64,000 nucleotides of DNA from Candidatus Omnitrophota bacterium (GTDB taxonomy: Bacteria > Omnitrophota > Gorgyraeia > Duberdicusellales > 4484-171): contig JBAWWL010000009.1 of NCBI GenBank assembly GCA_037146775.1, forward strand, positions 4,575 through 68,574, read 5' to 3'. The notes under the pieces were generated by a model, which was not told where the DNA came from, ran no database searches, and saw only the letters and a program-made list of their open reading frames with translations. Within the stretch, counting starts at the first letter, position 1, and every line of letters begins with the position of its first letter. Of the stretch, positions 20,301-58,156 are shown one piece after another. A program made the translations under genes and the position numbers.

Positions 20301-23300
20301 ATTTGTAGCCAACTCTCCTATAGCATCCATGGCAGGTTGACGGCCGCGAGCGGCAGCCATATTCAATGCTAAGATTGCTTCTTGCTTTACAATCTCGGAA
20401 GTTTCAGAGGTAATTATGTCCTTAAGCGCATCAATAGCAACCTGACCACCTCGATGGGCAGCGGCTGCTAATGCTCCGACTGCTGATTGTTTTATGGTCT
20501 CGGGAATTTGCGAGGCAACGATTTCTTTAAGTGCATCGACGGCAAGCTTACTACCTTCCGAAGCAGCAGCTGCTAATGTCAGGTTTGCTGCTTCTTTTAT
20601 GCCCGCTGAAGCTTGACCGGTAATGATATCTTTTAGCTTATTAGCCAGTTCTCCTACGGCGCCAATGGCGGTTTGACTGCCTTGAAGAGTAGCTTTTTTC
20701 AATCTATTAATTACCTCAATCTTCTTTATTTCTGTATCCGCTTCACCAAATTGTCTTTCCCACTCTGCTTGTGTTACTTCAATAGTGCTAGAAGCTTTTC
20801 CTCTTGGCCTCAAACTCTCATCCGCTGGACTTGCAGTATATTTTTCTGGATGCTGGTGAAAACCTAGATAGTAGGTATCCATGAATTCTTTAAATTCTTC
20901 CCAAGATAAGGTGTAGTGGCTAAGATAATACTGCAGGTTGGTTCTGGTTATTTCGCCAAAAGGAGTTGCTGGAAGTCTAACCCCCCTAGCTAAAGCATCG
21001 GTATGATAGATTCTATTTTTAAGTTGGACCGCTAGAAATGATTGTTCTAAAGAATCAACAGCTACCACCACGGCGACATAGCCATCACGGTATTGTTCTT
21101 GCATGAGCAAAGCTCTGTCGATGCTATTTAAAATTATCGGCCAGTCAACCTGCTGGTTGGCAATTTCATGGCTATGTAAATCACTTGCAGAATTTTTCTC
21201 AAGATATTCTTTAGCTAGTTTTTTAGCTTGATCAATAAAACCTCGCTCCATGAATAAACGTACCAGAGAATACATCTGAGAAGAATCAAAAGTTAGAGCT
21301 TTTGCTACGTTGACAAGGGCTGAAGCAAGTATATATAAAATATCGTTAGAAAGGTTCGCTAAGGCTTTTAAAAAATATATCGATAGTGCAGAATTATTAA
21401 CAAGCGCCTGGCTAACAGTTGCTGCAATAGTACCGCGAGTATCTTCAGAGTTATCCCCACGCTTGATAGCTGTAAGAAGAATATCAAGCTGTTCAGGCGT
21501 AAGCTGAAGAGTCCTTGCGTCACATAGTGCTAAATAAATTATCCCGGCTGCATCAATACGATTCTTATCATTAATATCATTGCGTTTTAATTCCTCAAGC
21601 GCCGACGGCAAAAGTTCGTGGTTATTAAACAGCGCCCTGCTAGCTGCTAGAGCGATATTGTTGTGCGCATCGTTACCGCGCTCCTCACTTTTCAAAGCAG
21701 CGACAAGAACACCAAACTGTATGGGCGTCAATTTGAGGCTTGAATTGTTATACAATGTGCGGTTGAGTAAACGAGCAATTTCTTGGTGCGTATTCTTTGA
21801 GTTATCTGGGCGTTGAAAGACTGCAAAGATACTACGCAAATGGTCATGGGTAGGCTTAATCATCCGAGCATCACATAACGCCAGATCTATCGCTTTTATA
21901 AAATCATAGCGGTTTTTATCAGTGATATCATCACGCTTTATTTCATCGAATGCCAAAGATAAAAGTCCTAGATTATTCACTAGTACCAAATGTATTGTTT
22001 CAGCAATTATCTCAATGGTCTTCTTAGAATTATTTGGTTGTTTTATGGCAGAAAAAATAATACTCAACTGCTCCGGTGTTGTCACAACAACGCTATGGCC
22101 ATTTAATATTTGACTGAGCGCCAAAGTAACTTGCGCCCGCTCAGTTTCATCTTGCGCCTGGCTAAGCTTATCAAAGTTAGTATCGAGTTCCCCCTGAGCA
22201 GTTAATGCCGACGATACCACCGGCCCCTTCACTTGGGCTATTGTTTCCTGGACTTTCTCTTCTAACCCCGAGCCCGTATCCAGCATCACCTCTAAATTAA
22301 AGCTCTTGCCTTTATTTGATGAGATTACCCTACTCGGATCATTGGTGATGGTAAGCGCGCTGGAAGCTTTGGTAAAATCACAGCCACCGGAGTAGTAGCG
22401 GCGGTTGATGTTCTGCTGGGTATTGGTATCGAATTCGTCTTTGATGTAGTTGTAGACGCCTTGTCTGTAGGCAGAGAGGTATTGTTTGTAGATCTTCTCT
22501 TTGATTTGTTTATCGGGGGTATCGATACCTTTAGTCTTTTTCCGGTTAACATAGATCTGACCGACTAAGCTTTCTTTGAGCTGCTTTTTAAACCATACGG
22601 AAAGAATTAAAGAGTTGTAGACCTGCCGTAAAGGAGCGAAGTTTTTGCCTTGATTGACTTCTTTTTCGATCTCAGGCAGGATGAGTTCTTTTAAGACTTC
22701 AGAGGAAACCTTGTTTAAGGCTTTTACTTTGTCTTCTTTGATCTTGGAGGTGCTATATTCCTGGTTATTGAGGTTGTTTTTGAGTGCCAGGTAGTCTTCT
22801 TCCAGCATGACTTTGAGCTTACTCTCTACCACAAAGGCGCTTGAATCTTCCTGATAGACCACCGCTTTATCCGGGACAATCCAGATCTTGTTGAAGGTAT
22901 TAATCGGTAGTTCAGTGGTACCATAGAGCTGGTAGACTTTCTTGTATACCTTCTCCCAGAACTGTTTACCTAGAGGACTCTCCGGATAAGTGATAGAAGC
23001 CATTAATTGTTTTAAGATGTAGTCTTCGGCAAGTAGGTCTTTACCCAGCTCCGTAATACCCAGTTCCTGGGGGATGACTCGTTCTTTTTCATAGGGTGAG
23101 AGGTTAACCCAGAGGTCTTCTTCCGGTATGGTTAAAGAGGCCAAGAAGTGCTTGATCAGTTTCTCTGAACTCTGTTTTAGTTCTTTTTGGCTAGAAGTGC
23201 TGTCTCCGCTATCCAGGATAAAGTCAAACTTGAAAGGCTCATCAGGATAGACTTTGATTCCTTTTAAAACCAGAGGGTTGAAAGCCGGGCTTACTTCCAA

Positions 23301-23456
23301 AAGCTGGGTGGGTGCAGGAAGAAACGAAGCGTAGGTTTTGGGAATAGCCTTATCGATATAACCGGCTAAAGCAGTGATAAAGATCGCTGCTGCCACAAAC
23401 AGAGCCACTGCCTTGAAGGGAATACTGGCGCGTTTTTGGTTAATATAGATTATCAT
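1..23456 (-). CDS. Giant protein 2 (partial; C-terminus lies beyond the window start). More than 7818 codons are in the window. Membrane-anchored, multi-AAA+/vWA/HEAT-like/TPR-like protein with an 8x repeated novel module.
   Basis: The ATG at 23456-23454 (minus) overlaps the TAA of giant gene 1 (TAATG). The first ~385 aa are near-identical to the N-terminus of the 6198-aa ORF (MIIYINQKRASIPFKAV...). My hand translation stays in one frame (codon first positions congruent to 2 mod 3) at 23456, 20360, 14813, 12689, 10418, 8978, 8168, 5060 and 5. The ORF track reports no complete minus-strand ORF longer than 88 aa anywhere in 1..23456, which is expected only if a single frame stays open to the window edge. 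All plus-strand ORFs here are short. Confidence 0.78.
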   Translation of the reverse strand, partial: MIIYINQKRASIPFKAVALFVAAAIFITALAGYIDKAIPKTYASFLPAPTQLLEVSPAFNPLVLKGIKVYPDEPFKFDFILDSGDSTSSQKELKQSSEKLIKHFLASLTIPEEDLWVNLSPYEKERVIPQELGITELGKDLLAEDYILKQLMASITYPESPLGKQFWEKVYKKVYQLYGTTELPINTFNKIWIVPDKAVVYQEDSSAFVVESKLKVMLEEDYLALKNNLNNQEYSTSKIKEDKVKALNKVSSEVLKELILPEIEKEVNQGKNFAPLRQVYNSLILSVWFKKQLKESLVGQIYVNRKKTKGIDTPDKQIKEKIYKQYLSAYRQGVYNYIKDEFDTNTQQNINRRYYSGGCDFTKASSALTITNDPSRVISSNKGKSFNLEVMLDTGSGLEEKVQETIAQVKGPVVSSALTAQGELDTNFDKLSQAQDETERAQVTLALSQILNGHSVVVTTPEQLSIIFSAIKQPNNSKKTIEIIAETIHLVLVNNLGLLSLAFDEIKRDDITDKNRYDFIKAIDLALCDARMIKPTHDHLRSIFAVFQRPDNSKNTHQEIARLLNRTLYNNSSLKLTPIQFGVLVAALKSEERGNDAHNNIALAASRALFNNHELLPSALEELKRNDINDKNRIDAAGIIYLALCDARTLQLTPEQLDILLTAIKRGDNSEDTRGTIAATVSQALVNNSALSIYFLKALANLSNDILYILASALVNVAKALTFDSSQMYSLVRLFMERGFIDQAKKLAKEYLEKNSASDLHSHEIANQQVDWPIILNSIDRALLMQEQYRDGYVAVVVAVDSLEQSFLAVQLKNRIYHTDALARGVRLPATPFGEITRTNLQYYLSHYTLSWEEFKEFMDTYYLGFHQHPEKYTASPADESLRPRGKASSTIEVTQAEWERQFGEADTEIKKIEVINRLKKATLQGSQTAIGAVGELANKLKDIITGQASAGIKEAANLTLAAAASEGSKLAVDALKEIVASQIPETIKQSAVGALAAAAHRGGQVAIDALKDIITSETSEIVKQEAILALNMAAARGRQPAMDAIGELATNLKAIITGQSSESLKQAVIQTLGVAAFMGNQPSVVAVGELATNIKAIITGQFSEALKQSAIQTLGAAAHRGNQPTISAIGELVTNLKEIIFGQASADLKSTVIQALGAGAAGNSQAAANTLKEIITSRVSENIKQSAIYNLGNAVAGGSQAATDVVGELIDILRGIIASQASAQIKKISTQAIKIFLEHSPDFLAKEAAKDQSDWSLILNHIDKSILLQQQYLEDYLAVVTNSDLVTQKLLAVKLKQRVYCDDAKMRGVNPVPEPIEISKIQLPLYLSRYTLSWEEFKQFMDAHYTEFHQHPQKYTESPETESLRPKGKVSSAVEVTQAEWERQFNEADTDAKKIEVIVELIRTASVAENSQSLVAATVIGKVSATLKGMIMSLNLQNSHQNFVETAMQALKIAASRNNQSAVNALKDIAISQNSETINVPAINALRAAVSGGSNFAVDALKEIVTSAIAENTRATAIEGLDAVAYDDGQAAISAIGELTVILKNIITNYGSERIKKAAISALSNAASKGSQAAVTVIEELLETLKGIITSQASEAIKRAATEAIKVFLAYSNFLVKEADKQENDWSIVLSGIDRNLLTQGQYYHDYTAIVYSAVVANADSTEQTLLAVQLKNKIYHADALVRGVSLPVTPFGEITLTNLQHYLSRYTLGWKEFKQFMDTNYADFHQYPERFMMSPAEEKLRPEKASSAVPESTIKTQGASSPTSDDWRITQQVQQLLDAIKTAKDDATHKSSITALRRAMIDNPMLAEKIYSAIGEVGVGIDNDPMRMKLFDAFSDAFRGMASQLSESEADRILDILRQKKLDFRSRREFSKVIGAIASNNYVFFNKLVSGITESSDQNVIVPFAWALQQILENTRSMALTSTQIKDLVATMERVNDLGVLQNIRDVLEKARNTNSSILEETLSALKETSSAGVAHELAFILGRASRGSQKNLSYAKQAIEFLLDRGLARSAIVSIVNPILEADPQWLSPSEVYSWIRSFSNKGFLVEAASIVKEYLNKHPETDFTVGVQKDEFDWPVILNSINRQLLMQEQYRDDYAAVVVNTDPAEQALLAVRLKNRIYYADALARGIVLPAAPFSELTRTNLQQYLSHYTLDWEEFKQFMDANYADFHRHPGKYIESPVEESLRPSKASSALSQTATVSEAIHEQDWSRAVQLAQAAMDNDTAKPEDITIWLTDLVAARQVDAVRSISVAAFDGLFGNLSYRGEWIAIVELLSSEITAILRLKQKELLMEKVRKPQFVDGIYHNLSARFPVAREGLSPTKFRTEFPKLFDPEITRTELTLKHESFLRNYIRRLMGERSKLTTDEAIRIKRLSRELTESIIEARKSHRLQTVGEVSYRESMRFRKIFSRWYLHDMRLAKSRVFDYFAMVAIGIYGRFVPWESRQQFAEVLEGVFRRPAFKDLFLEAGVERGSEVNRYKMLELFDYGRFQMDEQKLGPEAEEVKSVPGLPSYRKLSAAAERARACDMPLFVFVPAGHFTDVVVDALSQEADSAGKPNSEVIPVTISGFSQRNELFGKEQPDANGEMDFVDGAIARAIDFALAHSDKQVYFVLENPNFWSGDVRISLHQMLLERKVMLRRAESVSGRKQVEVNLPDNLQVVLTMERSADIGDESFMDRTAGYYLAELEAKEIQQYLALRVGVTAEVADFLVNNVYAKIKESRVFGDKVNVQDVVQIAYYVRGRMNDNNFTVPLLEVARQEAAMHLAAKFSDLQEAEVINALRSVVGDAPRGSVEISADGKTSVFAGIKVDIDPESRFGKHVAERLATDGRVPAFSEALKAVLPKDYFLTNSEEKVFCLLARVYRYSPSKVIYLQGLPGGGKTTIARVFLDIIGCQQEEYTLNNETELSLFRGSLRINPAAKRGVELREPPYWQNRSIDKVGDIINEIDTRLKVMQWLSPNIMARAYRLGLEYGSTDESNPFNRKDFGQGQITILTGNVRRDAPAILAANIPATYCMERSETDIISITRAMFLARMARMKPAGSSASSPMVLTESMVQSKADTLSAVYNAFSREVLAGNFSSKRLVTPRLSEYFNELMFKAIERGESIDKAFNMLLHIVFVFMWDNPQDMETARNIIKTQVTDLSPPPSPQELLKFIREFPLETPVLVLSNGTVTFKEIRDAVILGTAIKDTIVNLSRFHTKRSLIGGMSRTTEDRAPRNKLGILAWTILRAHLEGNERICWLKGYLNMNPQVTPLFNEFFPSNMLPVDEMFDDNVVNDVMALLGQYHQSYSRIRAEFLEAIKSDRVREKYVGKTSAELPERFEDLSPEQKRMLAKFIISYKPKNLSFRAVGMAEEPIALHPADVDRFFTVNVSHEFNKGWVSQYADGQLASIRESGLRKAALECVQAAWQLHEEQKVNGLYPHNRLGRAEIDLFIKEILSRHQAGTLDETTIKLLGYHILAMGLVEQEEDADQSREHKDYRQAYLAATHLNISQLRYSPNFSLEGGVVYYEIIVQVSGKPVVLVRQATEYSDFKELDKFGRYNFYRADSIIPVRLEAPLQSRLAQQASVMLFGNDNMSVVLEGDPGGGKTSGARDAANAEGKDYYEEGMFRRITLGTALGGLTLRGKEIVLNTLEKDAGRRYILPFLRMYSEGGQYVADEGMVSKGAGQVLRWIVSAASQEEIDLGTYHPGLQGIIVKRDPRFCFIITQNYHFKTGSRKPLPREIDLSVGKIRVDNVLSLEDAVMLINYYLEDAQFDDGLKTEMARLHILLSRSHPQRRMISPRDLIDAVQMVRERGVNADAERLEAIYEAIAVNYLEGLSEVEYEIAEKLVRQVFPDFRMPDFSRMQLVDRGNSDVSQEEVTHLEQSPTLARKVRAMECMLLTGGQATYRGRVLGRKQILLHESPSVGGVEFLKLFSRKTGRKMEVVEGSPFTTAKGLLVGESFAFDADFNDEGERTASIDSFRPAHGPLRRHLVTLEELDSIPPARQVPVLIAITNVESIPKNELVKLNELLQSRTIILKDDAGNLTTFVLPSWVTIVAITSDMRQLTSPFANRLRKIGLPDFNNAQEAHAVLSELYPNLTLEETRFLVEVNQQAAAFCAQRRFEQGYEFSMHDLSEMALRLQMFKQIDHGRGAVHNDPFWYAMKATYYVLFAAMCPEDRKVFLEQALAPILASRLSGLDNNQLIKYCRGLLGEIVQQERGLPREVYPKTLNLEDFSERVYKLANGMKVCLRGDSLNILTDADSYEVSWQELSNNEERKLSDGLSIVRQGDTLTLRLNIICAVGANRFSSNEENKRRAVPLEEMSVDDFMYPADSLLDALNALLQAHTPVVAANGKFIPSRIVLVAGETGSGKTTLARMLPRAEGTPLVRTNPWREMRDSHITVSLAFGQTVKMSVADFLLSCGTVNGKRINTAYPTSNRIRILYDEANVTRDVWYILDAIARGERKFNLITPAGDSVEVVLDKELDIILTYNPPERYGGTGKGSNRYAFPAPFSRKCLKVYTSEPLSRYSKTDITATGYSETETYGIMDGVDRRGEAYFKRQNEARRMSELEQAGKFTQEVPDSGFFAVENEAFPVERVPDITPKPLADLAQEIQQHYPQQPVEKLKRTVSEEERQEAAKQAREQVSFDPADLRARMQEFSLASPALSQQQKYAGLVNRVLIKAFVGMAREAVDSGLLREIVALCASVDSELATIVGELYDYYRQSTTSIQGLAICLGKLESNARKNKVYLENSRDKVLRWRGRPILGFSALPIARMLNMGSERLRHVLGDKYRQVFNDNDNPQVIVVVRPQDGTLGYFNSEGDAVVSFLNNTEKEYEVAAHELGHLVSEKIGPENAALAERLHKNGELLSTLFPLLLVPNPKAYVRDVLVAAIRNRRADDDAYALAARDVLNAFLKAHAKARISTDFEEDNIQVAVRLIDGLSDSEIVKLCMLFLNEPAEYFTDVQRGFYYIQQLSVNMAGATHNFDLSSGKLFFTPNVKVINIGEIDVAETDLSDLPPEKEVVDERQERRERLARVSRRELPASSRKWLERYKKLIAPTDDDYEADYEHVSDGGTDIDPEALAAGDYDRVLIAPQFEDEEKLLAQNIMFVIDASGSITSKPVLQRALEDMIYEYATNLLELSRINPDLNISVAVITTRFTPLFDFKQWKAARSHEAKRQLIVDALDRIWTENIDGGGIDGQALLNGLSDIEFPSAGNKDVKNLVVVATDGDEAQAVSPQVMGEALQEKIKQFQHGKYVTATGKPQIQASSHQQIDFVFAGVALDDGGEKLRKNYPCRINLEEQSIEAYLETLLKIALLQVEGHGLEGDVGHVVSAMDKSKAAASSALSTSQAKASSSPLTTQPDKQNGLQRLLAKGKAIVKGLIAKWKAHREVQIILSAQINKNKVLGTNAESVKLKAIKALYNAAIKDRKPAIDVLKEIITSQVPEGIRRAAIEALENAVLYESQYSVVAIGELVDNLKEIIISQASAGIRLTALRALNVAARYGSQPASNALKEIIITQVSGGIHIQYIAISGLKVAALHDSQPAIVAIEELSNTLKEIVFSQVAPDTKEEAIKALGAAAAKDRQSPINALKEIITSRVSADMRSVAIWQLRDIVRSAPVWHRRADSVIIALKEIINSEVSEYIKQTAIDGLSKTAFSDSQPVAIAAIGELADTLRDIVISQASENMRVSAITALRVVAYYGNQPVIAAIEELADTLRDIVISQASEHIKDAAIWALCFATHRASLPAIIALKQIIASQVSQKIKETARGAIKALLYNNDQEFLTREVARAEADWPIILSGIDGALLIRQQYINDYLLVVADMDSNTQSLLAVRLKQRIYLDDAKTRGVNPLPQPYEISQAQLPLCLSHYTEAWEEFKTFMDANYADFHQHPERFTMSPAEESLRPRGKGKASSAVGITLDEMIGKFFEAKTNPDRIAAINQLITTSSNGDPSGKIRATLKLIVTSQYSDKVKEEVMTRLAAAALGGNQAAIATINELIDIFKEIIKVKTSEGIRNSAIWALRTAAVKGNQIAFDAIEELMVVLGAIMNSSVYEKHIKETAKGAIEIYLAHNPEFLSKEAAKGQSDWPIILNHIERSLFERKEYRDGYIAVVTNSDSEVQKLLAVRLKQRIYCDDAKTRGVQPMPKPREISQTELPRYLSRYTEAWEEFKTFMDANYADFHQHPGKYIESPTEESLRPKKGKASGASSALQQEPPVSQGSWSLRKAIQRGVAAVQSWWRQRKEENAQRTVKNFMSMVKTTIGDKRIQRLSRQAARNPILLEHIVRNINESGNTMHSRQILCSVLSDVLRENHSLPLLQAQFDSLFDTFRNSPAVGLRDSLDGVLGSSARFHPEQLERLLVGAEEAEDPLVRESFINALYTALGGEDHLVPFSQGQMNRLLVFVSQPGQSQSFSRSLSLLVFAVLRKNRSLKLSHTQVLSLVEALKQTQDDKTREKYAEALIEALINDRSLASKDLHLDEIIEALSRAKDLAPEYILILLGQIAANNPQVYSRVQEVFQRMATPVYIHHLRQMLPCDSSEPHELKFWMRMLIHWGEPQAAINMASRYLHDSSGNLHSSDVERAEADWPIILDGIDWQLLKDRAYLEEYINVVVGVDSLEQSFLAVQLKNRIYHADARARKVPGLPAQPFSDITRRNLNQYLSRYTLSWEEFKTFMDTHYQEFHQHPETYNESPAEENLRPRGKGKASSALGETYQELIAKLAIEKEPTTQYRLADALATACQQTDWIEITTPQGLDGIFTILNQSQDDATMKLLASALRHIAKKASSRTKFNLEQAGFLAAAIAKANDYFLLSDLAVALGSVARGNPELLSIASAAAEKLFERKLFNKAFDIVQAFAEIGDFSDSVLVYSWMFRFVEKGEASMAKEIGQTYLRSSAFRTAYFEAQAALAQNDWPIILGSINWSLVLRKGTARTYPYKETLFLEGVYHEDYLNIILEKDNDRKNLLAVRIKQRIYLDDAKKRGVHLLPQPREISQTELPRYLSRYTLSWEEFKTFMDANYVDFHQHPEKYTESPAEESLRSGKASSALSFSDRGQAVLDNVQARAQIAEKITLSAFALVTMGGDGYNGNASHELVELADMYAELGNLQKAQDLLELAKGRISGYNEAPIRARISEVYAKLAKSQEAEEMLLSAIEKSEEPYSDPAIIARAAITINRIEKVQQAIQSAGSRRLKENKGHYLAYFAISLAEQNKTDEALAILRGIDSAKDIYSYRDLLVYLVTSGKISADQGIALAQKISKDYDRTDTLIKIAEGLAEKDTEAVLKIVKLLKNDYDQEKVLKLIARQIVARNRPDEITRMQANEIILISLSEAYADQNKMQEALGSAGRIMRTDLRLSTLLYIAKKLALSGDKAQAGRILDRDVLSNIGSSLKYKRSEVFALIAELEILLGRNTQAKQYVDAAIREAESSHVDEDFCILVANILSQLGLWNETFQFINQLKDETRGKALDAIARLAVAANKVEGYQDYSNRGWTPNNTGGSQGRAIAHMALARELAKGGRFDEAVQEARQVSYRDMYSQAYLVVAQVVAAEFRRTNEARVITELNDGMLQGRVIQLISQEMINAGALDRLLNLTRSVGRSEVDGYRAQAFVHIAETLVQVGRREEANLLLQEALTNIRGLDSLSCNSMIRAFRLFAALNPATVLESLQQAQVQLEAFNKKLLQACQPLEEYRGLHVTANLVKSGLTVAQMQDEQFFVPLVQFVRQSGGYLDFNLKYLGDLTVQNAKQTVESWVRVMTEYENPLCVPVMLDGQDANGSMEKIWHYLNGRPAHVTARDAYSWMRLFISLGAANAARDIAKKYIEEYQSKGGKAKL
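2350..2770 (-). repeat. Module copy 8. Translated by hand: LLPQPREISQTELPRYLSRYTLSWEEF.
   Basis: ataatcggccagtcgttctgtgcgag (LAQNDWPIIL) near 2751; ttcttcccaagataaggtgtagcgggaaagataacgcggaagttcagt at 2461-2510. Confidence 0.75.
3365..3740 (-). repeat. Module copy 7.
   Basis: gataatcggccagtcggcttcggccc (AEADWPIIL) near 3721; ttcttcccaagataaggtgtagcgggaaagatat at 3481-3515. Confidence 0.7.
4865..5240 (-). repeat. Module copy 6. Translated by hand: ...MPKPREISQTELPRYLSRYTEAWEEFKTFMDANYADFHQHPGKYIESPTEESLRPKKGKASGASSA.
   Basis: Reverse-complement translation from 5060 downward, in frame with the 23456 start. gataatcggccagtcagattgg near 5221. Confidence 0.8.
5745..6120 (-). repeat. Module copy 5.
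   Basis: aataatcggccagtcggcttc near 6101; ttcttcccaagcctcggtgtagtgggaaagacat at 5866-5900; tail gcactagacgcttttcctttacctcttggcctcaagc at 5746-5785. Confidence 0.7.
6200..7300 (-). repeat. Third HEAT-like repeat array in giant gene 2. It contains exact 50-nt nucleotide repeats 120 nt apart.
   Basis: gaagcctgggaaataacaatatctcttaaggtatcagcaagctc occurs at 6311-6360 and again at 6431-6480. Confidence 0.7.
7600..8170 (-). other. vWA domain with a MIDAS motif (NIMFVIDASGSITSKP ... VVVATDGDEAQ) in giant gene 2, C-terminal to the AAA+ region.
   Basis: Reverse complement of 8141-8180: tta gca caa aat atc atg ttt gtg ata gat gcc agc ggc agt att acg. The codon starting at 8168 is in frame with the ORF. 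Confidence 0.6.
8964..8978 (-). other. HExxH zinc-metallopeptidase motif in giant gene 2 (KEYEVAAHELGHLVSEKIGP).
   Basis: Reverse complement of 8941-8999, in frame with the giant gene 2 ORF. Confidence 0.55.
9900..15600 (-). other. Multi-AAA+ ATPase region of giant gene 2, with at least three canonical Walker A P-loops about 2.1 kb apart. The arrangement is midasin/dynein/MoxR-like.
   Basis: In-frame reverse-complement translations: QGLPGGGKTTIARVF (GGA at 14813), VVLEGDPGGGKTSGARDAA (GGC at 12689), VLVAGETGSGKTTLARML (10418-10380), followed by Walker-B-like RIRILYDEANV (~10150-10200). Confidence 0.65.
16870..17240 (-). repeat. Module copy 4.
   Basis: accggccagtcgaattc (DEFDWPVIL) near 17221; ttcttcccaatctaaagtatagtgactaagatattgctgcaagttagt at 16981-17030. 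Confidence 0.65.
18205..18590 (-). repeat. Module copy 3.
   Basis: aatcgaccaatc (DWS) near 18571; ctttccaacccaaggtatagcgactaagataatgctgcaggttggt at 18311-18360. Confidence 0.65.
18620..19250 (-). repeat. Second HEAT-like 42-aa repeat array in giant gene 2.
   Basis: The same nucleotide periodicity and the AIxALxxAAxxG / LKxIITSQ pattern read on the reverse complement. Confidence 0.5.
19340..19710 (-). repeat. Module copy 2.
   Basis: ataagcgaccagtcggattgg (DQSDWSLIL) near 19691; ttcttcccaagataaggtatagcggctgagatac at 19441-19475; GK-rich tail at 19341-19370. Confidence 0.7.
19780..20700 (-). repeat. Array of 42-aa (126-nt) HEAT/ARM-like alpha-solenoid repeats in giant gene 2.
   Basis: 126-nt period, for example ctggccagtg at 20151 and again at 20277. 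Hand translation: ...AIGELATNLKAIITGQSSESLKQAVIQTLGVAAFMGNQPSVVAVGELATNIKAIITGQFSEALKQSAIQTLGAAAHRGNQP.... Confidence 0.7.
20781..21160 (-). repeat. Module copy 1 of a novel ~130-aa repeated domain in giant gene 2 (DWPIIL ... YLSRYTLSWEEFKxFMD ... HQHPEKY ... RPxGKASSA).
   Basis: Plus-strand landmarks: cggccagtc (DWP) near 21135; ttcttcccaagataaggtgtagtggctaagata (LSHYTLSWEEF) at 20881-20915; Lys/Gly/Ser-rich tail at 20781-20815. Confidence 0.7.
22278..23456 (-). repeat. Copy B of a ~1.18 kb near-identical direct repeat. It is the 5' coding end of giant gene 2 and matches the 5' end of giant gene 1.
   Basis: Pairwise reading of 22278-23456 against 40869-42052. The outer ~100 nt are diverged. 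From ~22385/40976 to the start codons the copies are almost identical, with scattered SNPs (for example atccaggataaagtc versus atctaagataaagtc). Similarity stops exactly at the start codons. Confidence 0.9.
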
Positions 23457-38400: not shown

Positions 38401-41400
38401 AACCCATCTTCTTCTCTATAACAGCCTCTTCTTTTTTTTCTACCGCCGATGACACCGCTGGCCTATCTACTTTCACGTCAATACTACCCTGTTTATTTTC
38501 TGGCATAGTCAACGGCGATGCGGCAGTACCCGGTTTAACATCACCCTTTTTATCAAGAGCAACATTTTGAGGAGACCCTACCTTGGAAGTAACTACATTG
38601 GTGACAGTTGATCCTTCTACTCTTTGACTTGTTTGCTGTAAAATATTAGGAGTAGAATCAATTCCCCCGCCAGGAGGAGTTACGCCAAGATAAGGGCTAT
38701 AGGCATTATATTCGAGAGCAAAAAGCTCTGATTCAGCATAGTGAGCTTGCGGCGAATAGTCAGATCCGATAGTATTACCAAATATATCAACCTGATCAAA
38801 ATTTCCTCTAAGAAAAGCTTTGAAAACCTCAGGGCTCATATTGCGTAATGTATCAATTGCAAGCTGTATTTCTTCGGGAATTCCTGAAGAAAATTCTATA
38901 TAAGTTCCGCCATTTGAATTAATCACTCTAAACACGCCTTCGTCATAAGACCACACCTCAAAAGCGTAAGCGACCATCGCCAAGATATCCAATAAATTCG
39001 ATACATCGGATGCTTGCTTACGAATCGTAGCCTTGCTAATTGTGTCGGGATCAAAAGAAAAGAGCGGATTGGAATTTTGCTGCCCAACAATAGTTCCGTA
39101 ACGGCTAGTGGCAGTATATCCTTCTTTCCAAAGTATTCTTAGCAAAGCAAGATTACGTAGCACCATTTCTTTCAACAATCTTCTGCGGTCAGATGAAGAA
39201 CCAATATCAAGGCCTTGATATTGGAAGAATTCACGGTAACGATATGCCTCTTTTTTCCATTGTCTTTTTCTCCCGCGCCGGTATTCTGGATCAAGACTTA
39301 ACTCTTCAATTCTTTCGGGTATGCCGATTTGATATAGCAAAATTTCCATCTCGTTAACAAGATTATCGGGTATTCCTGATCCTTTAAGAACTTTATCAGC
39401 TTCCACGAGACAAAGTTCTCGATCAACAGTAAGCCCCTCCGCTACACCAGGCCATAATCCTTCTGTTTCTTTTCTTCCCACGAGCGCCACCGGAAGCATA
39501 AGCGGTTGAAATTGCGCTCCAGGTTCCAAAAACATCTCAGCGGCTTCCCGGCTTAAGCCTTGATTTTTTAATTCAGCAAATACCGGGTCATCACCGTCAA
39601 AATATTCGTAGAACTTACTTCTCAACCACCCAGCTGCCCCCACATAAGCCAAATTCTCCTGGATTAAATTACCTCCACGCAGCACGCTCGGAGGATTGCC
39701 CTTGCGGAAAGGCGCTCTGATTCCCATACCTCTGGCAAATTCTTGTTCATCAGCCAACCCTGTACCTTTGAAAACAAACGCACAAGGCTTGCCGTTTCTT
39801 GTAAACTTTGTTGCTATAGCGCGATTATGCATAATATTTCTACTGGGCGCGCATCTGACAGGAATAAGATAAATATTGGCATCGTTGCTATCAACACCAT
39901 AGACATTAAGAATTTCTCTGGCAGTGGCCGACAAACTCCTAACTGGTAAAATGAACCTGCGGCTGATTGCGTCGCGGATAAATTCTTGGCTACTGAAAGA
40001 AGACATTTTAGCCGGCACATAGGTAACGGCCTCTCCGGGAAATGCCTCTTGTAATTGGTTGTTATCGTTATGCAGTTCCCCTAAAGCTCGATAAAGCTCG
40101 CGGGCTATCTCTTTAGGCCTTTGGCCTTGTTTAAATTTACCAAGCGCAAAGTCGCCTAGCGCCGAGGAATTGCGATAGAACTGGCCTATCTCCATAAGTT
40201 CGTTAATCGGCACGCCAGCATCTACCATCGCACTGAAACCTTCGGGAGATAATTCATAGGCTTCAACTGCGGACTCTAAAATATCGCTATCATAAATATT
40301 TCGTTGAAATGCAATTTCACAGATATTGACTATCGCATCATGAGTGGCAATAGTACGCCTGCCTACGATACCATTACGCTTCAACGCCTCGTGTAACCGG
40401 ATAACCGCTGCTTCAAAATCGTTGAAACCAATCACCACCCTAGAGTTAGTAGATATACGATTCCTGATCGCGGCTTGAATCAAACCAAAAAAGAACCCGT
40501 CGGAGTACCGTTCATCAATAACTCTTCTGGTGCGTTCAGTAATTTCTATGGTATCAATTCCTTCTGTGCGGCTAAGTTCTTCCAACCACACACCAGCCAC
40601 AATATATGCTCGGTATCGTTCCCTCACGGGAATACTCAAGAAATCTTGAGAAAATCTTGCAAATCTCTTTTGTAGCTGATCTTTGGCTAAACGTATTCTT
40701 TCTTCCTGTTGAACTCTTTCCTCGTGCGCTCGTTTTTTCTTACCCCCGGTTAATCGATCAAACAAGCTAGAGAGAAAAGACTCTGGTTTTACTTCATCTG
40801 CGCTCAAAGGAGAAGAAATACTCTTACCGTCTGATAGATTTTCAACCTTCTCTTCAAAACCATCCACGCCCGTCTCCAGCATCACCTCTAAGTTAAAGCT
40901 CTTGCCTCGGTTGGAAGAGATTACTCGGCTGGGGTCATTGGTGATGGTAAGAGCGCTAGAAGCTTTAGTAAAGTCACAGCCTCCGGAGTAGTAGCGGCGG
41001 TTGATGTTCTGCTGGGTATTGGTATCGAATTCGTCTTTGATGTAGTTGTAGACGCCTTGTCTGTAGGCAGAGAGGTATTGTTTGTAGATCTTCTCTTTGA
41101 TTTGTTTATCGGGGGTATCGATACCTTTAGTCTTTTTCCGGTTAACATAGATCTGACCGACTAAGCTTTCTTTGAGCTGCTTTTTAAACCATACGGAAAG
41201 AATTAAAGAGTTGTAGACCTGCCGTAAAGGAGCGAAGTTTTTGCCTTGATTGACTTCTTTTTCGATCTCAGGCAGGATGAGTTCTTTTAAGACTTCAGAG
41301 GAAACCTTGTTTAAGGCTTTTACTTTGTCTTCTTTGATCTTGGAGGTGCTATATTCCTGGTTATTGAGGTTGTTTTTGAGTGCCAGGTAGTCTTCTTCCA

Positions 41401-42052
41401 GCATGACTTTGAGCTTACTCTCTACCACAAAGGCGCTTGAATCTTCCTGATAGACCACCGCTTTATCCGGGACAATCCAGATCTTGTTGAAGGTATTAAT
41501 CGGTAGTTCAGTGGTACCATAGAGCTGGTAGACTTTCTTGTATACCTTCTCCCAGAACTGTTTACCTAGAGGACTCTCCGGATAAGTGATAGAAGCCATT
41601 AATTGTTTTAAGATGTAGTCTTCGGCAAGTAGGTCTTTACCCAGCTCCGTAATACCCAGTTCCTGGGGGATGACTCGTTCTTTTTCATAGGGTGAGAGGT
41701 TAACCCAGAGGTCTTCTTCCGGTATGGTTAAAGAGGCCAAGAAGTGCTTGATCAGTTTCTCTGAACTCTGTTTTAGTTCTTTTTGGCTAGAAGTACTGTC
41801 TCCGCTATCTAAGATAAAGTCAAACTTGAAAGGCTCATCAGGATAGACCTTGATTCCTTTTAAGACCAGAGGGTTAAAAGCCGGGCTTACTTCCAAAAGC
41901 TGGGTGGGTGCAGGAAGAAAAGAAGCGTAGGTTTTGGGGATAGCCTTATCGATATAACCGGCTAAAGCAGTGATAAAGATCGCTGCTGCCACAAACAGAG
42001 CCACTGCCTTGAAGGGAATACTGGCGCGTTTTTGGTTAATATAGATTATCAT
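23456..42052 (-). CDS. Giant protein 1 (6198 aa). N-terminal signal-anchor, then a multi-enzyme architecture: HEVGH zincin, HD domain, caspase/CHAT-like, HEIIH zincin, GT4 glycosyltransferase, class I SAM methyltransferase, JAB/MPN-like.
   Basis: Complete ORF from the six-frame track. Hydrophobic N-terminus (AVALFVAAAIFITALAGYI). Motifs located on the nucleotide sequence: FLIAHEVGHRF (~37970-37985), AALLHDIGKAL (~34140-34165), ITFSGHA...IVFDACYAHDF (~30890-31050), LIIHEIIHTNF (~29170-29190), REGFALVPLEAASMGVPVIGSDIPG (~26350-26425), ILHVGTGSGWMVAVLADLL (~25702-25765), YHSHFKGSKYPEGPSKLD (~23967-24025). Confidence 0.9.
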   Translation of the reverse strand: MIIYINQKRASIPFKAVALFVAAAIFITALAGYIDKAIPKTYASFLPAPTQLLEVSPAFNPLVLKGIKVYPDEPFKFDFILDSGDSTSSQKELKQSSEKLIKHFLASLTIPEEDLWVNLSPYEKERVIPQELGITELGKDLLAEDYILKQLMASITYPESPLGKQFWEKVYKKVYQLYGTTELPINTFNKIWIVPDKAVVYQEDSSAFVVESKLKVMLEEDYLALKNNLNNQEYSTSKIKEDKVKALNKVSSEVLKELILPEIEKEVNQGKNFAPLRQVYNSLILSVWFKKQLKESLVGQIYVNRKKTKGIDTPDKQIKEKIYKQYLSAYRQGVYNYIKDEFDTNTQQNINRRYYSGGCDFTKASSALTITNDPSRVISSNRGKSFNLEVMLETGVDGFEEKVENLSDGKSISSPLSADEVKPESFLSSLFDRLTGGKKKRAHEERVQQEERIRLAKDQLQKRFARFSQDFLSIPVRERYRAYIVAGVWLEELSRTEGIDTIEITERTRRVIDERYSDGFFFGLIQAAIRNRISTNSRVVIGFNDFEAAVIRLHEALKRNGIVGRRTIATHDAIVNICEIAFQRNIYDSDILESAVEAYELSPEGFSAMVDAGVPINELMEIGQFYRNSSALGDFALGKFKQGQRPKEIARELYRALGELHNDNNQLQEAFPGEAVTYVPAKMSSFSSQEFIRDAISRRFILPVRSLSATAREILNVYGVDSNDANIYLIPVRCAPSRNIMHNRAIATKFTRNGKPCAFVFKGTGLADEQEFARGMGIRAPFRKGNPPSVLRGGNLIQENLAYVGAAGWLRSKFYEYFDGDDPVFAELKNQGLSREAAEMFLEPGAQFQPLMLPVALVGRKETEGLWPGVAEGLTVDRELCLVEADKVLKGSGIPDNLVNEMEILLYQIGIPERIEELSLDPEYRRGRKRQWKKEAYRYREFFQYQGLDIGSSSDRRRLLKEMVLRNLALLRILWKEGYTATSRYGTIVGQQNSNPLFSFDPDTISKATIRKQASDVSNLLDILAMVAYAFEVWSYDEGVFRVINSNGGTYIEFSSGIPEEIQLAIDTLRNMSPEVFKAFLRGNFDQVDIFGNTIGSDYSPQAHYAESELFALEYNAYSPYLGVTPPGGGIDSTPNILQQTSQRVEGSTVTNVVTSKVGSPQNVALDKKGDVKPGTAASPLTMPENKQGSIDVKVDRPAVSSAVEKKEEAVIEKKMGSEVRESLQTRSTVSERLEEYFSERYAAAYTYISREQFAEWHRRLEGRFQAVTQAAERLHFSPLPHAIGIDTDYISTSPGALEEHVKSVTIELGDGIKVSLPRLPESAEYVGNERLWIVLVTPEAVRALSDQALTFLIAHEVGHRFYGPSTPEIELQVDRVATDIVVSIYGWNAPVAAVNELQKAFPLSETATNTHPSGQQKIDAVAAYVGQRKAQDAERKEGETKSVVSSAVTTDANQDESINRFFDMYMEGVVAGESLSSRRLGVHVSRYPNLTTRLISALASESRTDVQLRLLAAVNNALSNSREVKLSAQEAETLVIKPLCDGNVEAAHRDLYFHVLQYALVNNPDVLSGTMKVLETIKDRDLGYKLAWEVIGEALARNHELLSEVLNALDNLRDGSNKQFISFLEFIFIKGFDRSHITITSEQTQAFDKAITRGIDLSHAYSRAIAHNPELFDLVFEKFRAVHDQTVQGTVSSPTEAAYADVLNLSLVHNTRIKPSAAQIVYLLKAAHRTQDDKVRQSVLSGALGAIRNNNYDVTLLMDETGPLVFAINEVRTGETFNFLVAALEDLISRSPQAFTLADTQVFVDMLNETTVHQRERREALVRVLQKAFSHNPGLLTVLCGEKGLSYDHDLAGVLEDAPAGDLTLIPLLVNARKTREPSRDDYDPLLTAIGRALHDNPAQLPFVVNAIRDTSGNPVCRRLAYLVPRFLEAHENLSLTREQLHTVVQAVKYSASRDNLFNERMVIHEIAGGNLAMARVAFDNELVELLVRRNEEVPSNQRIDIERFLRQIAGSFTMLLQIDREYAIGAFKEILRVAGPQGLDAFFTRLDNLLCFPGYDALVEKLIKKAAYGSSWSLLMVFLDDEYAVEGYWRMAEDINDGMLAPYLGESPILHARCLLMRGAYEELRQLVARGEVSPDQILEAFLWNKQNNIISQTSDMAQSFAGERGVLAEMTPIAQKITLPTCTFTELHNTLLDAGVVTSEAGTMALLNAQGGFRLYAHRGQRLIVPVIFDNMNNVFRGSSEHDNAEANYVTHALSTAIVHYALRGGEIKDSHGAKAFHEFDLLFLELIGHKYRAVDTAVTLAFCYVNSPEADRANRDNAVPLPECARKRTQRIDQDTIANSVQKVMVWELAEKRAKQNIYKILQWIAQGRLSKSAIAQARAALEREVNNLRPNDEGGICGLRPAYFQTLFGYLDAQFLDRFQARLEADYQPGQDNQGLLQGLLAEVLVDREVVKATAYNATPIKMMAHPWIGRKITLFDYLKAEVGYLDRDPTTYVYSEHDVSTVKLEDFGQVSPSAAELAVANAQETVKPEQQAIAAINNSGLSQEYKDELSRRILLDGDTRVMQLLVQVAPQLAPIATPRGGGNLLDHTLYTMNSVYEDRTIDAMSLRDSSGAAIPIKRLMVIAALLHDIGKALIRSHSEHEQASVRYIRETLSSQFSEFEINLICYLVGEDIVGRTISKAISPAEADGLLTAGVVSLGIPKGQLFELAISFYCADIGLGRFGRHVFGVGEERRINFWQGRPIIPEGKYSQLDELKKLVVGPDGSASSPAAKQAEDITVKSTASSAIASQGMKKFVADNRNNPLTLPITLVALGAKPSYLLDDSSPANAQQARQLLAHLPGGNVQEIEVTLQESDGHASQKLLFYNPQAIKTEISNHPEVYRVQDGDIITTIKKAFIDSQQGWLLGYPQAQIPAAKIEYTDSPTENWSYVEIWADGQYLFGYVVSRLPLVEMETASLTRYTQPLSELGVKKVAVIYTRSFNNQEQAQIKQFLGRSLAGRVVISSYSENLPAEKIWWLGEGKYIRITEEMLAPAAFPETIRTILARDRQRLSERLEILQADLTKGEDPGLKEEILRREINQISQELAGLERKIGEVRVSSAVSSPLNQEIPSKSIEELRREKSTYQLATIAIREDGARAQEALQAIENLLQDGYIDGVSDLKNIARNKPGLINEGTVGILEVILRKPNVTPQAISFVCETLSVIVTSGVESVVSRKATKVLLDALNTAALDRTSYDSEEIASQVYSQVARTLTEIAIYSNNTNLIDMCFDTFERVLNENRLEAHSYSIATNALLRIVRKKSDRARASTIEAFERNLNASDRGITTHSYSLRAIVDLSQERSDLIARSTVDAVKLHSEKNGDAMRALAAIGGNQYTGQYADECIDEILRVLNIEGDFTVVPVVVAAAVAAQEFARKRSGLFASPTRRQALEHAAASRQRPAAFFGEIAGVYNVLFSQHPDWAEPATVATLEGIMKRDDLANDDYATAVAALTAIRNYNRQMIKTDSLAELLLQLPFRFYGHTFIHHIVYQSQGFKTRTSHMEDEERYEVGLAVYYHLRASGIIPEEASEAEIVQAFDFIIAGRRVVQETLPDDRQSQNELYSSRRTAVNIFHEEMRAEQTRYEALQTSSDMSSGQIHSYVGGSTVPATADVITDVKDAIITHKGPLTITFSGHANREGFALSPSQIISVEELAVWLIERGNLNNVNIVFDACYAHDFVDNLNRTLHNLGVSVDITTLAIAHKNKQAVGGSLRSIERYHSAGQPFTIGQAMRAMRRSDVFIHQVANIFCPRWRLIEAGVQDPFEKRTAADESYRQLPVNVGLTGQPGQVSTGDMEVLASPADTILKETNGVNPIAFSILGSTTFDLSEQTIGIAGTTITVKPVGPRTINGLVRPADNGAMLLVNTQAFSEMLFVLNHGTRSERENYINKLFSTIPNLTGDQRVSLGRIKAHFNQAPPLSREEQNVLVSHILIHEFTECYALRTGNTRIHAHTAAMMAEAEFTQRQESAGFNVQAVRDAFAPIALLRDIRQANTYSYRYPTLQVGQETQPATASSSLQIKDSLVSSPKEDSAIASSPLAQPSRDIAAVVNIYQIMDEYLRVYEENAERVVRNDQFKQETGLDIAAMVRKFLPSSTGKPVSGKETSSVSAEQQSREELDRARARISTLKALMAEDSSPDRLGVFVRALSMVEGGAKITGKNIPAAQLPRDDQVFALHAIKAEAAQNESLQRVFNEEGVLFIPQNSWLTKLLGLRRESGMNIRLSDGNAHIDVILVNDRIVGVPNITKLIIHEIIHTNFTEGVLTVFAKSRQLWAFYHLLLEAVTEELARDVMLRIALRNKELREILGVGAEQVSEDLAEAMLNSAIYGTAEAKVAAAAGKIRNVYRNERVLLHALMKLYENWSDGYEQVVKRFLVQGDESPMKTLFADSWDLAIRIAVELLTIPERDAPYEHQQALRMFAAGINPGQISRLLPIVLKLMRLVKQTDIVPKSKKAEELSEQLTACLYEAARNVFKDFSKNEEFVLDRDGESLIEALIKSAKEVISQRTRLESTDFEVRLYGVDDAFRRSLANESGHDFASSPLEENSLSFNERGMPMNVSTERARVYHGVRGASRVGGDAIDKVKSIIRQKAIMSLKRVDLIDSQDSGIRKLMVFFYEGILRSMRPADLITLEQSNFDLRNYILLNKTSIEANTDPRARHLLGDASLTRMETYGMLNIDDVLRNYCIWVFESEQAVQGYYGREAYFEFDIPQSEFRDQRIIIGEIPLEYARRLVISDGARKEELKELLRGQGLGRIEVVVSPGFASSALTDNSAKLEETPQSKKAPSFVASSAVDSSLSQTPGLDKDFSVGTAGTLLGNDGQVKEARIAELVAHLKSLQSRPTSGTKTYLEQFSLTPTPIENSLLANRTIIQLAPDLKADGISRYAIKLIGMLAARNPGLTQVVFYPDSNKTQETKTLEIGTSKILFIPFAIEEGHELDDLENKISAYVAQDSNVELVVSHLQEYHYGVSDIVTKRNLPFLAYLHNATGFNSSEVWDAAEKYLQPYIFEKLVNNPLVRILTVNPASPEDIRQRFPNARVDWIGPLFEDNNFNSLTDLEREAVSRYLREQYFMRDDDVFILVPNSLDSRKGLPEILDALEGLQFEHFRSKKEFLSGVKVLFVGLGSEQRIHDIEQEIRRRDLTGIAYVAGAVPQEMLRFLYGRANGVLLYSRREGFALVPLEAASMGVPVIGSDIPGVRESIVDRESGLLVPWYADFEQRADALKDGLSRFMSLAPQDRLAWGRRATQHVEQFKPEEWIGRHEETYSETIQDFRQMAETTESAVSSPLAQVELSKKSNDISQSASSAVTATSSQDIFYKNVEDFLSSKKVRLEQIQSILRAMQANPRADFIDMPDIQDAYSLRLPAGYRERALPSGPYLGFVASLLNLKGDEKILHVGTGSGWMVAVLADLLNGGKNSGNGKIYTVEIDPAISRDRQALISPKYQNVEFIRGDAFSELDGIDGIKFDRIIVDGSLPGGISKSLFNRLSQGSGMMVVPVSTGNFSRQPTYAVYRVVRFGPRVFYNSFTQPGWNFEDLRAIPGDILPPEKLETVSSSVISEKTSLTDKSIVSSPIFNRETVEVSFFAQDAAEKVIEAFRDGRVVVLNLKTADAPDLNSANKEIKRTWFKKVKARIENFVHELPWLRPSGNIFGRDIRHPLREMLKNAFFWGNHFNLSLPIGLSIELNDSGKCSKVEVYDTNVVPKPLMVDVSLAHEKDIDLAGATTGTTVIQNIVRYQIFIGKVIDETIQGFKTLAVITPKESAVKKPAEHNTVGDKGTQASSVLSLMEPAKEAFHEEKVSSALNIENDPVAKIFDLRLSQPISRETEWTRIVTPAEALDFHQKWQSSSQGYYAQDYQGKTYNFPLKAWEKMVAWSGRSPDFERKGYFIARSQGDIIEIVDFIPVGSIVMSPRIDNYDKDDSDIEQVNTSGIGTFFPGGERGQILMQRYGINLVDQEILSFESVARGKPGLISMPYHSHFKGSKYPEGPSKLDRKSSKGVDFVYALDSGRGFIFDKNSPSQEVLQNLRSVATQTIGGDVGEETTKDNKTGGIDPSTLLRVNSSESKPGGIDFNPKYLELEVKGSSVKFGRFNIPFDIKKFEGFSFRIINIKAIHNLSSILKTYPVNRDEAQTQSDKVDLALVSHEKYIARKKEDRFESNLYK
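40869..42052 (-). repeat. Copy A of the ~1.18 kb direct repeat (5' coding end of giant gene 1).
   Basis: Same as above. The spurious out-of-frame ORFs 22325..22552 and 40921..41148 in the track are near-identical, which independently marks the duplication. Confidence 0.9.
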
Positions 42053-58069: not shown

Positions 58070-58156
58070 CGGAGGCGGAAGGATTCGAACCCTCGATGCC
58101 CTTACGGGCATAACGGTTTTCAAGACCGCCGCATTCAACCACTCTGCCACGCCTCC
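58070..58156 (-). tRNA. tRNA-Ser (anticodon TGA), class II with a long variable arm.
   Basis: Reverse complement: GGAGGCG TG GCAGAGTGGTTGAATGC G GCGGT CTTGAAA ACCGT TATGCCCGTAAGGGCATC GAGGG TTCGAAT CCTTC CGCCTCC G. Acceptor, anticodon and T stems all pair. The CCA is not encoded. Confidence 0.85.

Follow-up and report, generated by a model that had tools for sequence, protein, structure and literature searches.

Two tandem giant genes share a near-identical 5' module

The DNA examined here, referred to as the window, is a stretch of 64,000 nucleotides from a Candidatus Omnitrophota bacterium (assembly GCA_037146775.1, contig JBAWWL010000009.1, positions 4,575 to 68,574), and it carries two giant open reading frames (ORFs) in tandem on the minus strand. 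These are gene B and, immediately downstream, gene A, and their 5' ends are copies of one module of about 400 residues, here termed the header. Behind the header each gene continues into its own cargo, and gene B closes with a short C-terminal tail that it shares with relatives described below. Gene A starts at position 23456 and more than 7818 amino acids (aa) of it are visible before the ORF exits the window at its left end. Omnitrophota are tiny, uncultured and probably predatory or parasitic bacteria that are noted for their very large genes.

Alignment of 22252-23457 with 40845-42053 by blastn gave 97.35% identity over 1209 columns, with 29 mismatches and 3 gap openings, and the same pair was recovered independently by a repeat finder (repeat family D6). 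Over the 1143 nucleotides that begin with the ATG and end with codon 381, 21 differences separate the copies (98.2% identity). The encoded proteins are identical over residues 1-381, their similarity fades from residue 382 to about residue 403, and they are unrelated beyond. When the copies were compared column by column, identity was found to begin 1 base before each ATG, and the 150 nucleotides upstream gave 24-30 matches per 60 columns with many gaps, which is the level of unrelated sequence. At the distal end, DNA similarity decays past about nucleotide 1110 of the ORFs. No BLASTP similarity between the two proteins was found outside the module at E<1e-3, and no third copy of the header was found in the window by tblastn.

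A preliminary description of the window, made from the sequence, had placed near-identity of about 98% between 22278-23456 and 40869-42052, with the identity stopping at the start codons, the distal 100 or so nucleotides already diverging and two very different payloads following. Each of these statements agrees with the alignments. The same description had staked its reading on an identity not below 85% and on similarity not continuing into the upstream DNA, and both came out as it had proposed, with 97.35% identity and unrelated upstream sequence. A simple segmental duplication that took in upstream DNA is ruled out by this absence of upstream similarity.

Differences between the two headers form a mosaic

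To locate the differences, synonymous and non-synonymous changes were counted by the Nei-Gojobori procedure for each segment of the header (Table 1). All 21 nucleotide differences within codons 1-381, which fall in 19 codons, are synonymous, and they are clustered, with a run of 812 nucleotides free of any difference lying beside patches in which the synonymous divergence (dS) is 0.29 or the proportion of synonymous differences (pS) is 0.71. When the 21 differences were put at random on third codon positions in 200,000 trials, an identical run of the observed length was reached in none. This clustering argues for patchy or repeated conversion rather than for a single recent duplication, and the restriction of the differences to synonymous changes indicates that both copies belong to real genes under strong purifying selection. 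As in gene conversion, the tract of high identity ends where the homology ends, its flanks are unrelated, and the differences form a non-uniform mosaic. Judged from these alignments, the headers of genes A and B were very probably homologous already and were then homogenised by recent gene conversion that was limited to the module, with purifying selection holding the amino acids. The recent conversion that the preliminary description had proposed from nucleotide identity is thus supported, and is refined to a patchy or repeated process.

Table 1. Coordinates of genes A and B, their shared module and associated features. Positions are those of the window; aa, amino acids; nt, nucleotides; dS and dN, synonymous and non-synonymous divergence; pS and pN, proportions of synonymous and non-synonymous differences; HMM, hidden Markov model.
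Feature	Position	Strand	Description
Gene B	23456..42052	-	6198-aa ORF (42052 to 23456): header, unrelated cargo, C-terminal tail; from ORF list and translation
Gene A, 5' part	1..23456	-	Header, then unrelated cargo; open frame from 23459 to 3
Gene B TAA stop	23458-23456	-	
TAATG junction	23454..23458	-	1-base overlap of gene B stop with gene A start
Header copy, gene B (aa 1-403)	40844..42052	-	Leader helix, conserved domain of about 320 aa, extension of about 45 aa
Header copy, gene A (aa 1-403)	22248..23456	-	98.5% over 404 aa by tblastn
Codons 1-37			No synonymous and no non-synonymous difference
Codons 38-86	B 41795..41941, A 23199-23345	-	8 differences, dS 0.29, dN 0
Codons 87-356			No difference of either kind
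Difference-free run	B 40983..41794, A 22387-23198	-	812 nt; ORF nt 259-1070
Codons 357-381	B 40910..40984, A 22314-22388	-	12 of 25 codons differ, pS 0.71 (near saturation), dN 0
Codons 382-395			pS 0.17, pN 0.075
Leader hydrophobic helix, gene B aa 12-34	41951..42019	-	IPFKAVALFVAAAIFITALAGYI; Kyte-Doolittle scan
Leader helix, gene A counterpart	23355-23423	-	
Gene B tail motif, aa 6102-6165	23558..23749	-	KPGGIDFNPKYLELEVKGSSVKFGRFNIPFDIKKFEGFSFRIINIKAIHNL; motif and HMM
AT-rich spacer, ruvB to gene B	42053..42678	-	626 nt; without similarity to sequence upstream of gene A

Mechanistically, non-reciprocal homologous recombination between direct repeats 18.6 kb apart would have homogenised the two headers, either in more than one event or with patchy repair of heteroduplex. 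Such conversion would have been unable to pass the ATG on one side or about codon 400 on the other because homology ends there, and strong purifying selection would keep both copies at one amino-acid sequence wherever conversion left differences. The conversion tract would make the header an exchangeable unit at the DNA level, which is a plausible route for the reshuffling of cargoes.

A different history would be a single recent event, in which a copy of a ready-made header was joined to the second gene at its 5' end, or one gene was duplicated in tandem and the cargo then replaced, with no later exchange and with the few differences being mutations accumulated since. The very low overall divergence of codons 1-381 and the sharp upstream boundary at the ATG are what such an event would leave, and cargoes are clearly exchanged within the family while the header stays constant. 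Clock-like mutation, however, predicts an even spread of differences, which is contradicted by the clean 812 nucleotides beside the two divergent patches and by the permutation result. The 3' edge is moreover graded, with synonymous sites near saturation while the amino acids are identical, which points to older homology beyond the freshly identical tract, and neither gene resembles a fresh fusion, gene B having the family tail and gene A a full header. We therefore regard a single event as unlikely.

It was also considered that the pattern could stem from assembly or polishing, by which two more divergent repeats were homogenised or the contig was threaded through a repeat of different strains. 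The genome is that of an uncultured Omnitrophota bacterium with no independent assembly in the collections searched, and a perfect repeat of 812 nucleotides exceeds the length of short reads. Against an artefact, 21 differing sites that are all synonymous are the signature of selection on two real genes and not of sequencing or consensus error, and both junctions are in frame and typical of the family, the tail of gene B meeting the ATG of gene A and each header entering its own cargo. Tight tail-to-header junctions were also found in 34 other tandem arrays, and similarity limited to the header was found in independent assemblies (L064, L089 and L155, described next), so that an artefact appears highly improbable.

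Gene conversion as the preferred reading is also supported by other members of the family that lie together at one locus. Headers at the same locus have a median identity of about 60%, and 3 of 33 such pairs reach 85% or more (95% at locus L089, 92% at L064 and 85% at L155). In the L089 pair DNA similarity begins exactly at the ATG, and the L064 pair is 88% identical over 1199 nucleotides, with pS varying from 0.04 to 0.54 along the module, before unrelated cargo follows. Similarity of tandem neighbours that is limited to the header is thus recurrent, and among the cases seen the pair in the window is the most recent. Gene conversion is well known to drive the concerted evolution of paralogs in bacteria, as in tufA/tufB and the rRNA operons. 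The headers resemble such cases in that near-identical tracts within one genome end with the homology and differences form a mosaic; they depart from them in that one module of two otherwise unrelated giant genes has been homogenised, and in that most other paralog pairs of the family have not, as the median identity shows.

The header defines a large family in Omnitrophota

Genes A and B belong, as tandem neighbours, to a large multigene family that, as judged from sequence searches, is found almost only in Omnitrophota. A word-indexed search returned 1187 relatives of the header, the best of them 57-60% identical. This count appears restricted to proteins up to about 1.75 times the length of the query, so that giant members are unlisted in it, and these were taken instead from an exhaustive search of representatives and from the ORFs of genome loci. 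With clustering at 50% identity, the exhaustive profile search gave 8389 clusters, and for 6815 of these the match had E<=1e-30. Among the matches listed, the header domain starts at residue 1-64 in 150 of 150 proteins, which are up to 5312 aa long. Species-representative genomes contained at least 585 header loci, nearly all labelled Omnitrophota and some auto-labelled 'Planctomycetales', and several loci per genome were common. A scan of metagenomes gave identities of at most 60%, and no record was returned for an exact query with the TrpRS of the window.

Within 80 genome loci the domain always lies 30-60 residues from the start of ORFs that range from 400 to more than 3700 aa, and the family as a whole extends from 438 aa to more than 7800 aa. 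About 50 positions of the header are invariant, including the motifs DLWVNLSPYE, NTFNKxWIVP, EIEKEVNxGKNF..LRQ and YxSGG (alignment A1), and both copies in the window carry every invariant column of alignments A1, A2 and A3.

Members that share a locus are co-oriented, all 33 same-locus pairs lying on the same strand. In other tandem arrays the spacers from the tail of one gene to the header of the next measure 5-1182 nucleotides, many of them below 50, and the TAATG overlap in the window is the extreme of this common operon-like arrangement. When neighbouring genes were clustered across the 80 loci, no conserved partner gene was found beside the header genes, the best family being a generic one present at 13. 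At two loci of public metagenome-assembled genomes (L064 6218-9785 and L061 2520-7235) family genes are divided, the header being in one ORF and the tail in another, and these may be pseudogenes or assembly frameshifts.

Cargoes lie between the header and a conserved C-terminal tail

The architecture common to the family is a Sec-type leader, the header domain of about 320 aa with its extension of about 45 aa, a variable cargo and a C-terminal tail of about 60 aa. The consensus of the tail is GGIDLNPanLnLqIkrdGnGv.lPld.q.len..ieGFvPVIINItPvtNLPlLLG (motif GGIDLNP…GFxPVIINIxP), and the motif occurs in gene B and in about 60 of the 74 ORFs that are complete. Using 178 family tails, a hidden Markov model (HMM) was built and searched against 160 loci and the window. 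This gave 142 matches, all within 37 aa of the end of an ORF; 121 of these are in ORFs that bear a header, and the remaining 21 are in ORFs cut by the edge of the locus or split by stops. In the window the tail is seen in gene B only, the C-terminus of gene A lying outside, and the HMM matches gene B at aa 6102-6157 (independent E-value 6.4e-6) with the variant form GFSFRIINIKA. In many family proteins the very last residues form a short ...(Q/E)(L/V)S(L)LN motif.

Between these ends the cargo measures 338-3298 aa in 105 ORFs from the loci and about 5700 aa in gene B. The smallest member, P0096 (438 aa), consists of header and tail with no cargo at all, and the cargoes thus behave as insertions between two constant ends. 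In gene A, Pfam matches comprise HEAT repeats (aa 941-1032 and 5393-5445), two P-loop/AAA regions (aa 2875-2923 and 4343-4369), a VWA domain (aa 5093-5232) and TPR. In gene B they comprise a weak HD match (aa 2624-2663), a GT4 glycosyltransferase (aa 5106-5284, window 26201-26737) and a PCMT-like methyltransferase (aa 5366-5539, window 25436-25957). Across the family the header precedes hundreds of unrelated cargoes, among them phosphoglycerate kinase (E 3e-107), glutamate and alanine dehydrogenases, transketolase, PPDK, UDPGP and CofD, as well as SNF2, receiver domains, methyltransferases and HAD; zeta-toxin, protein kinase, HATPase, GNAT and sugar transferase come in addition from precomputed annotations. 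Full-length enzymes of housekeeping type (phosphoglycerate kinase, glutamate dehydrogenase, transketolase and PPDK) thus lie between an apparent signal peptide with header and the tail, which is puzzling if they are exported.

Header and tail also vary together. The subtype of header found in the window, with a charged stretch after the helix and without the cleavage motif described below, co-occurs with the variant tail GF[ST]FxI[IM], and across 105 proteins the identities of headers and of tails are correlated (Spearman 0.32, a value reached in 0 of 500 Mantel permutations). Co-inheritance alone could account for this correlation.

The leader predicts export by the Sec pathway

In each of genes A and B the leader is the sole strong hydrophobic segment in a Kyte-Doolittle scan (Table 1), and it was modelled by AlphaFold2 (AF2) as a helix spanning residues 12-37. 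Across 229 members, lysine and arginine number 3.0 before the hydrophobic core versus 1.3 after it. In 210 of these sequences the flank before the core has the higher net charge, and in 5 it has the lower. After the core, 322 of 379 members carry A↓Q (the arrow marking the candidate cut), residue -3 being A, V, S or G, and the domain begins about 6 residues further on with the conserved LPxPG. This motif looks like a canonical signal-peptidase I site, so that in most members the leader resembles a cleavable signal peptide. The window leaders have the n- and h-regions and no A↓Q, with candidate sites ALA↓G or TYA↓S situated after a charged stretch, and in this subtype the leader may remain as an N-in signal anchor. 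The signal-anchor helix of the preliminary description is therefore a possible reading for the two window copies, whereas for most of the family the sequence favours cleavage.

From the charge bias and the single hydrophobic segment, header, cargo and tail are all predicted to lie outside the cytoplasmic membrane. The leader would send the protein through the Sec pathway, and on this evidence we consider export, with an extracytoplasmic location, probable. The alternative is that the header is not exported and that the N-terminal helix holds the protein at the inner face of the cytoplasmic membrane, so that header, cargo and tail remain in the cytoplasm and the header, close to the membrane, would serve large enzyme complexes as a scaffold or assembly domain. 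The cargo domains are indeed of cytoplasmic type and depend on cofactors, genes A and B have just one hydrophobic segment each, the window subtype is without the canonical cleavage motif, and a 2026 preprint on complete Omnitrophota genomes (10.64898/2026.06.07.730766) reads many long Omnitrophota proteins that have only a helix as membrane-anchored with cytoplasmic domains. A cytoplasmic tether is, however, hard to reconcile with the positive charge, which lies N-terminal to the helix in 210 sequences as opposed to 5 and predicts that the N-terminus is inside and the remainder outside, and a textbook (-3,-1) signal-peptidase site after the core in 85% of members would be senseless for a cytoplasmic domain. 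This topology is accordingly held to be rather unlikely. The same preprint (10.64898/2026.06.07.730766) records the same tension between export and cytoplasmic-type cargo for long proteins with signal peptides.

Possible roles of the header and tail

Scans of the header and of the tail against Pfam, NCBIfam and PADLOC stayed at noise level. Nothing was found among PDB sequences by profile search either, and comparison of the thirds of the header by hhalign gave no internal duplication. In the AF2 model the header is rich in helices and has three beta-hairpins; the best Foldseek match to the PDB had E 0.026 with a probability of 0.30. A BPI/TULIP-like lipid-binding fold, in which a curved antiparallel sheet wraps a long helix, was a weak lead from structure and was set aside, as no significant structural match was obtained.

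Given the leader and the constancy of both ends, we tentatively propose that arbitrary cargo is docked, anchored or handed over at the envelope by a module common to the family, namely the header, probably with the tail. After export, the header and probably the tail would serve the intervening cargo as this shared module, and a shared docking task would account for the use of a single header design with hundreds of unrelated cargoes and for its being kept about 50-60% identical across the phylum. The preliminary description had suggested a common targeting, anchoring or secretion-recognition module. That view gains from a position that is always N-terminal, a Sec-type leader and unrelated cargoes behind it; the role itself can only be inferred, there being no fold match and no conserved partner. 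Taken as a whole, the account given here, with family membership, gene conversion and an exported header that has an envelope role, is in our judgement reasonably likely to be correct.

Several observations weigh against this account. Codons 357-381 are nearly saturated with synonymous changes and yet encode 25 of 25 identical amino acids in a stretch that is variable in the family, a pattern that requires unusually strong lineage-specific selection. The cargoes are classic cytoplasmic enzymes that require ATP, S-adenosylmethionine or nucleotide sugars (AAA ATPases, GT4, PCMT, phosphoglycerate kinase and glutamate dehydrogenase), and they fit export badly unless they act inside another cell. 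The window leader, with charged residues after the helix in place of a canonical A↓Q, makes processing uncertain. As for a docking role, no conserved partner gene lies nearby (best neighbour family at 13 of 80 loci), no relative in fold or sequence lends the header a function, and the AF2 models are of only moderate quality (predicted local distance difference test, pLDDT, 69-71).

A more specific and more doubtful idea is that Omnitrophota possess a sorting or display system of their own, not recognised before, of which header and tail form the two ends, and that these dock jointly or head-to-tail at the envelope. If so, cytoplasmic-type enzymes and giant scaffolds would be exposed or delivered outside the cell, possibly into or onto prey or host. 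Selection to fit a single shared receptor would then lie behind the near-identical headers of neighbouring genes, and the conserved ends would double as recombination handles for the swapping of cargoes.

A further possibility is that the header is a putative enzyme or self-processing domain that, together with the tail, cleaves, modifies or circularises its own polypeptide. Its conservation is exceptional for a mere anchor, with many polar residues among the approximately 50 invariant positions (N118, E123, R126, D145, K149, Q150, E266, N268, R277 and Q278), header and tail co-occur strictly, and their subtypes co-vary. No catalytic family was matched by sequence or by fold, however, and the many invariant aromatic residues would suit the binding of a ligand or partner equally well. 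We consider catalysis improbable and retain docking, anchoring or hand-over as the preferred, if tentative, role.

Whatever the role, one N-terminal header and one C-terminal tail frame arbitrary cargo in thousands of large Omnitrophota proteins. Their motifs give a simple sequence signature by which the family can be catalogued, and the design gives a testable hypothesis on how these proteins leave the cytoplasm and where they go. As two short conserved pieces, header and tail are also tractable without the handling of a protein of 6000 residues.

Comparison with known systems

In its apparent working the header most resembles the conserved flanks of MARTX toxins, treated below, or the TPS domain of two-partner-secretion exoproteins (TpsA, for example FHA and CdiA), in which a Sec leader is likewise followed by a conserved N-terminal module (about 250-300 aa in TPS). 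TpsA proteins also carry a very large, highly variable passenger behind this module, and members can be multi-copy; unlike the present family they have no obligatory conserved C-terminal tail. The header was not assigned to TPS domains, as there was no Pfam Haemagg_act match at E<0.1, the AF2 model is helix-rich and not a beta-helix, and no conserved TpsB-like neighbour was found.

Polymorphic toxins (such as Rhs/YD, CdiA-CT and LXG) combine a constant trafficking end with variable enzymatic cargo, occur in multi-copy arrays and have their cargo reshuffled by recombination. In these toxins variation is confined to the C-terminal tip and an immunity gene comes next, whereas in the header/tail family thousands of residues vary between two constant ends. 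No conserved immunity-like small gene was found beside the header genes at the 80 loci.

Two papers on MARTX toxins (PMC4453568, PMC5218395) describe giant secreted proteins with exchangeable enzymatic domains arrayed centrally between conserved N- and C-terminal regions, the set of domains being changed by recombination, and this much is shared with the family. As described there (PMC4453568, PMC5218395), the flanks of MARTX toxins are long glycine-rich repeats, secretion is by type I and the effectors are freed by a cysteine protease domain. Unlike these, the flanks here are a single globular header and a tail of 60 aa, with a Sec-type leader. Membership of the MARTX/RTX toxins was rejected, since no glycine-rich repeats, cysteine protease or type I signal were found by Pfam in genes A and B, and the genes upstream are housekeeping genes only.

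With the giant genes already reported from Omnitrophota (10.1101/2023.11.21.568195; 10.64898/2026.06.07.730766) the family shares the phylum, very long ORFs, frequent signal peptides and a mixture of HEAT repeats, AAA ATPases, methyltransferases, glycosyltransferases and metabolic enzymes. The giant proteins of those two studies are above 10-30 kaa (thousands of amino acids) and have many transmembrane helices and SecA-DEAD domains. According to West-Roberts et al. 2023 (10.1101/2023.11.21.568195), Omnitrophota giant proteins are usually longer than 30,000 aa, with numerous transmembrane regions and a divergent SecA-DEAD domain, and identifiable domains are generally absent from the N-terminal regions of giant genes. 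Genes A and B were not placed in this multi-transmembrane SecA-DEAD class, having one hydrophobic segment each, no SecA or DEAD match and lengths of 6198 and more than 7818 aa.

By term search, conservation of a header or tail is not mentioned in 10.1101/2023.11.21.568195, in 10.64898/2026.06.07.730766 or in the 2023 Nature Microbiology survey, and gene conversion is not mentioned in 10.64898/2026.06.07.730766. The arrangement of header, cargo and tail therefore appears to be undescribed in the giant-gene literature searched.

Chromosomal surroundings and minor features of the window

Upstream of gene B lie ordinary chromosomal genes, namely ruvB, scpA, trpS, infB, nusA, rimP, proS, a gene for a PilT-like ATPase, ispG, rseP, dxr, cdsA, uppS and genes for an OmpA-family protein, a deaminase, a GGDEF-HD protein and a permease, as well as cheB. 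The PilT/T2SSE-type secretion ATPase (50422-51672, minus strand) is isolated between translation and isoprenoid genes (proS and ispG), and no other pilus or secretion gene was found in the window. The sole Rfam match in the window is one tRNA gene (58070-58156, minus strand).

In the spacer between ruvB and gene B, promoter-like and terminator-like sites did not exceed shuffled expectation, and no obvious Shine-Dalgarno sequence was seen upstream of gene A or of gene B. Like that of gene A, the ATG of gene B is preceded by TAA (TAAATG). A 257-aa ORF antisense within gene A (13888-14661, plus strand) is most likely spurious.

Gene A contains arrays of diverged 105/126-nucleotide units at 5412-7188 and 18627-20637 (minus strand), which encode 35/42 aa, are 61-74% identical and have a HEAT-type match. 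Four more internal repeat families, of 184-300 nucleotides (61-78%), are located at 2313-6350 and 16885-21102. Given these arrays and families, gene A would appear to have grown partly by internal duplication.

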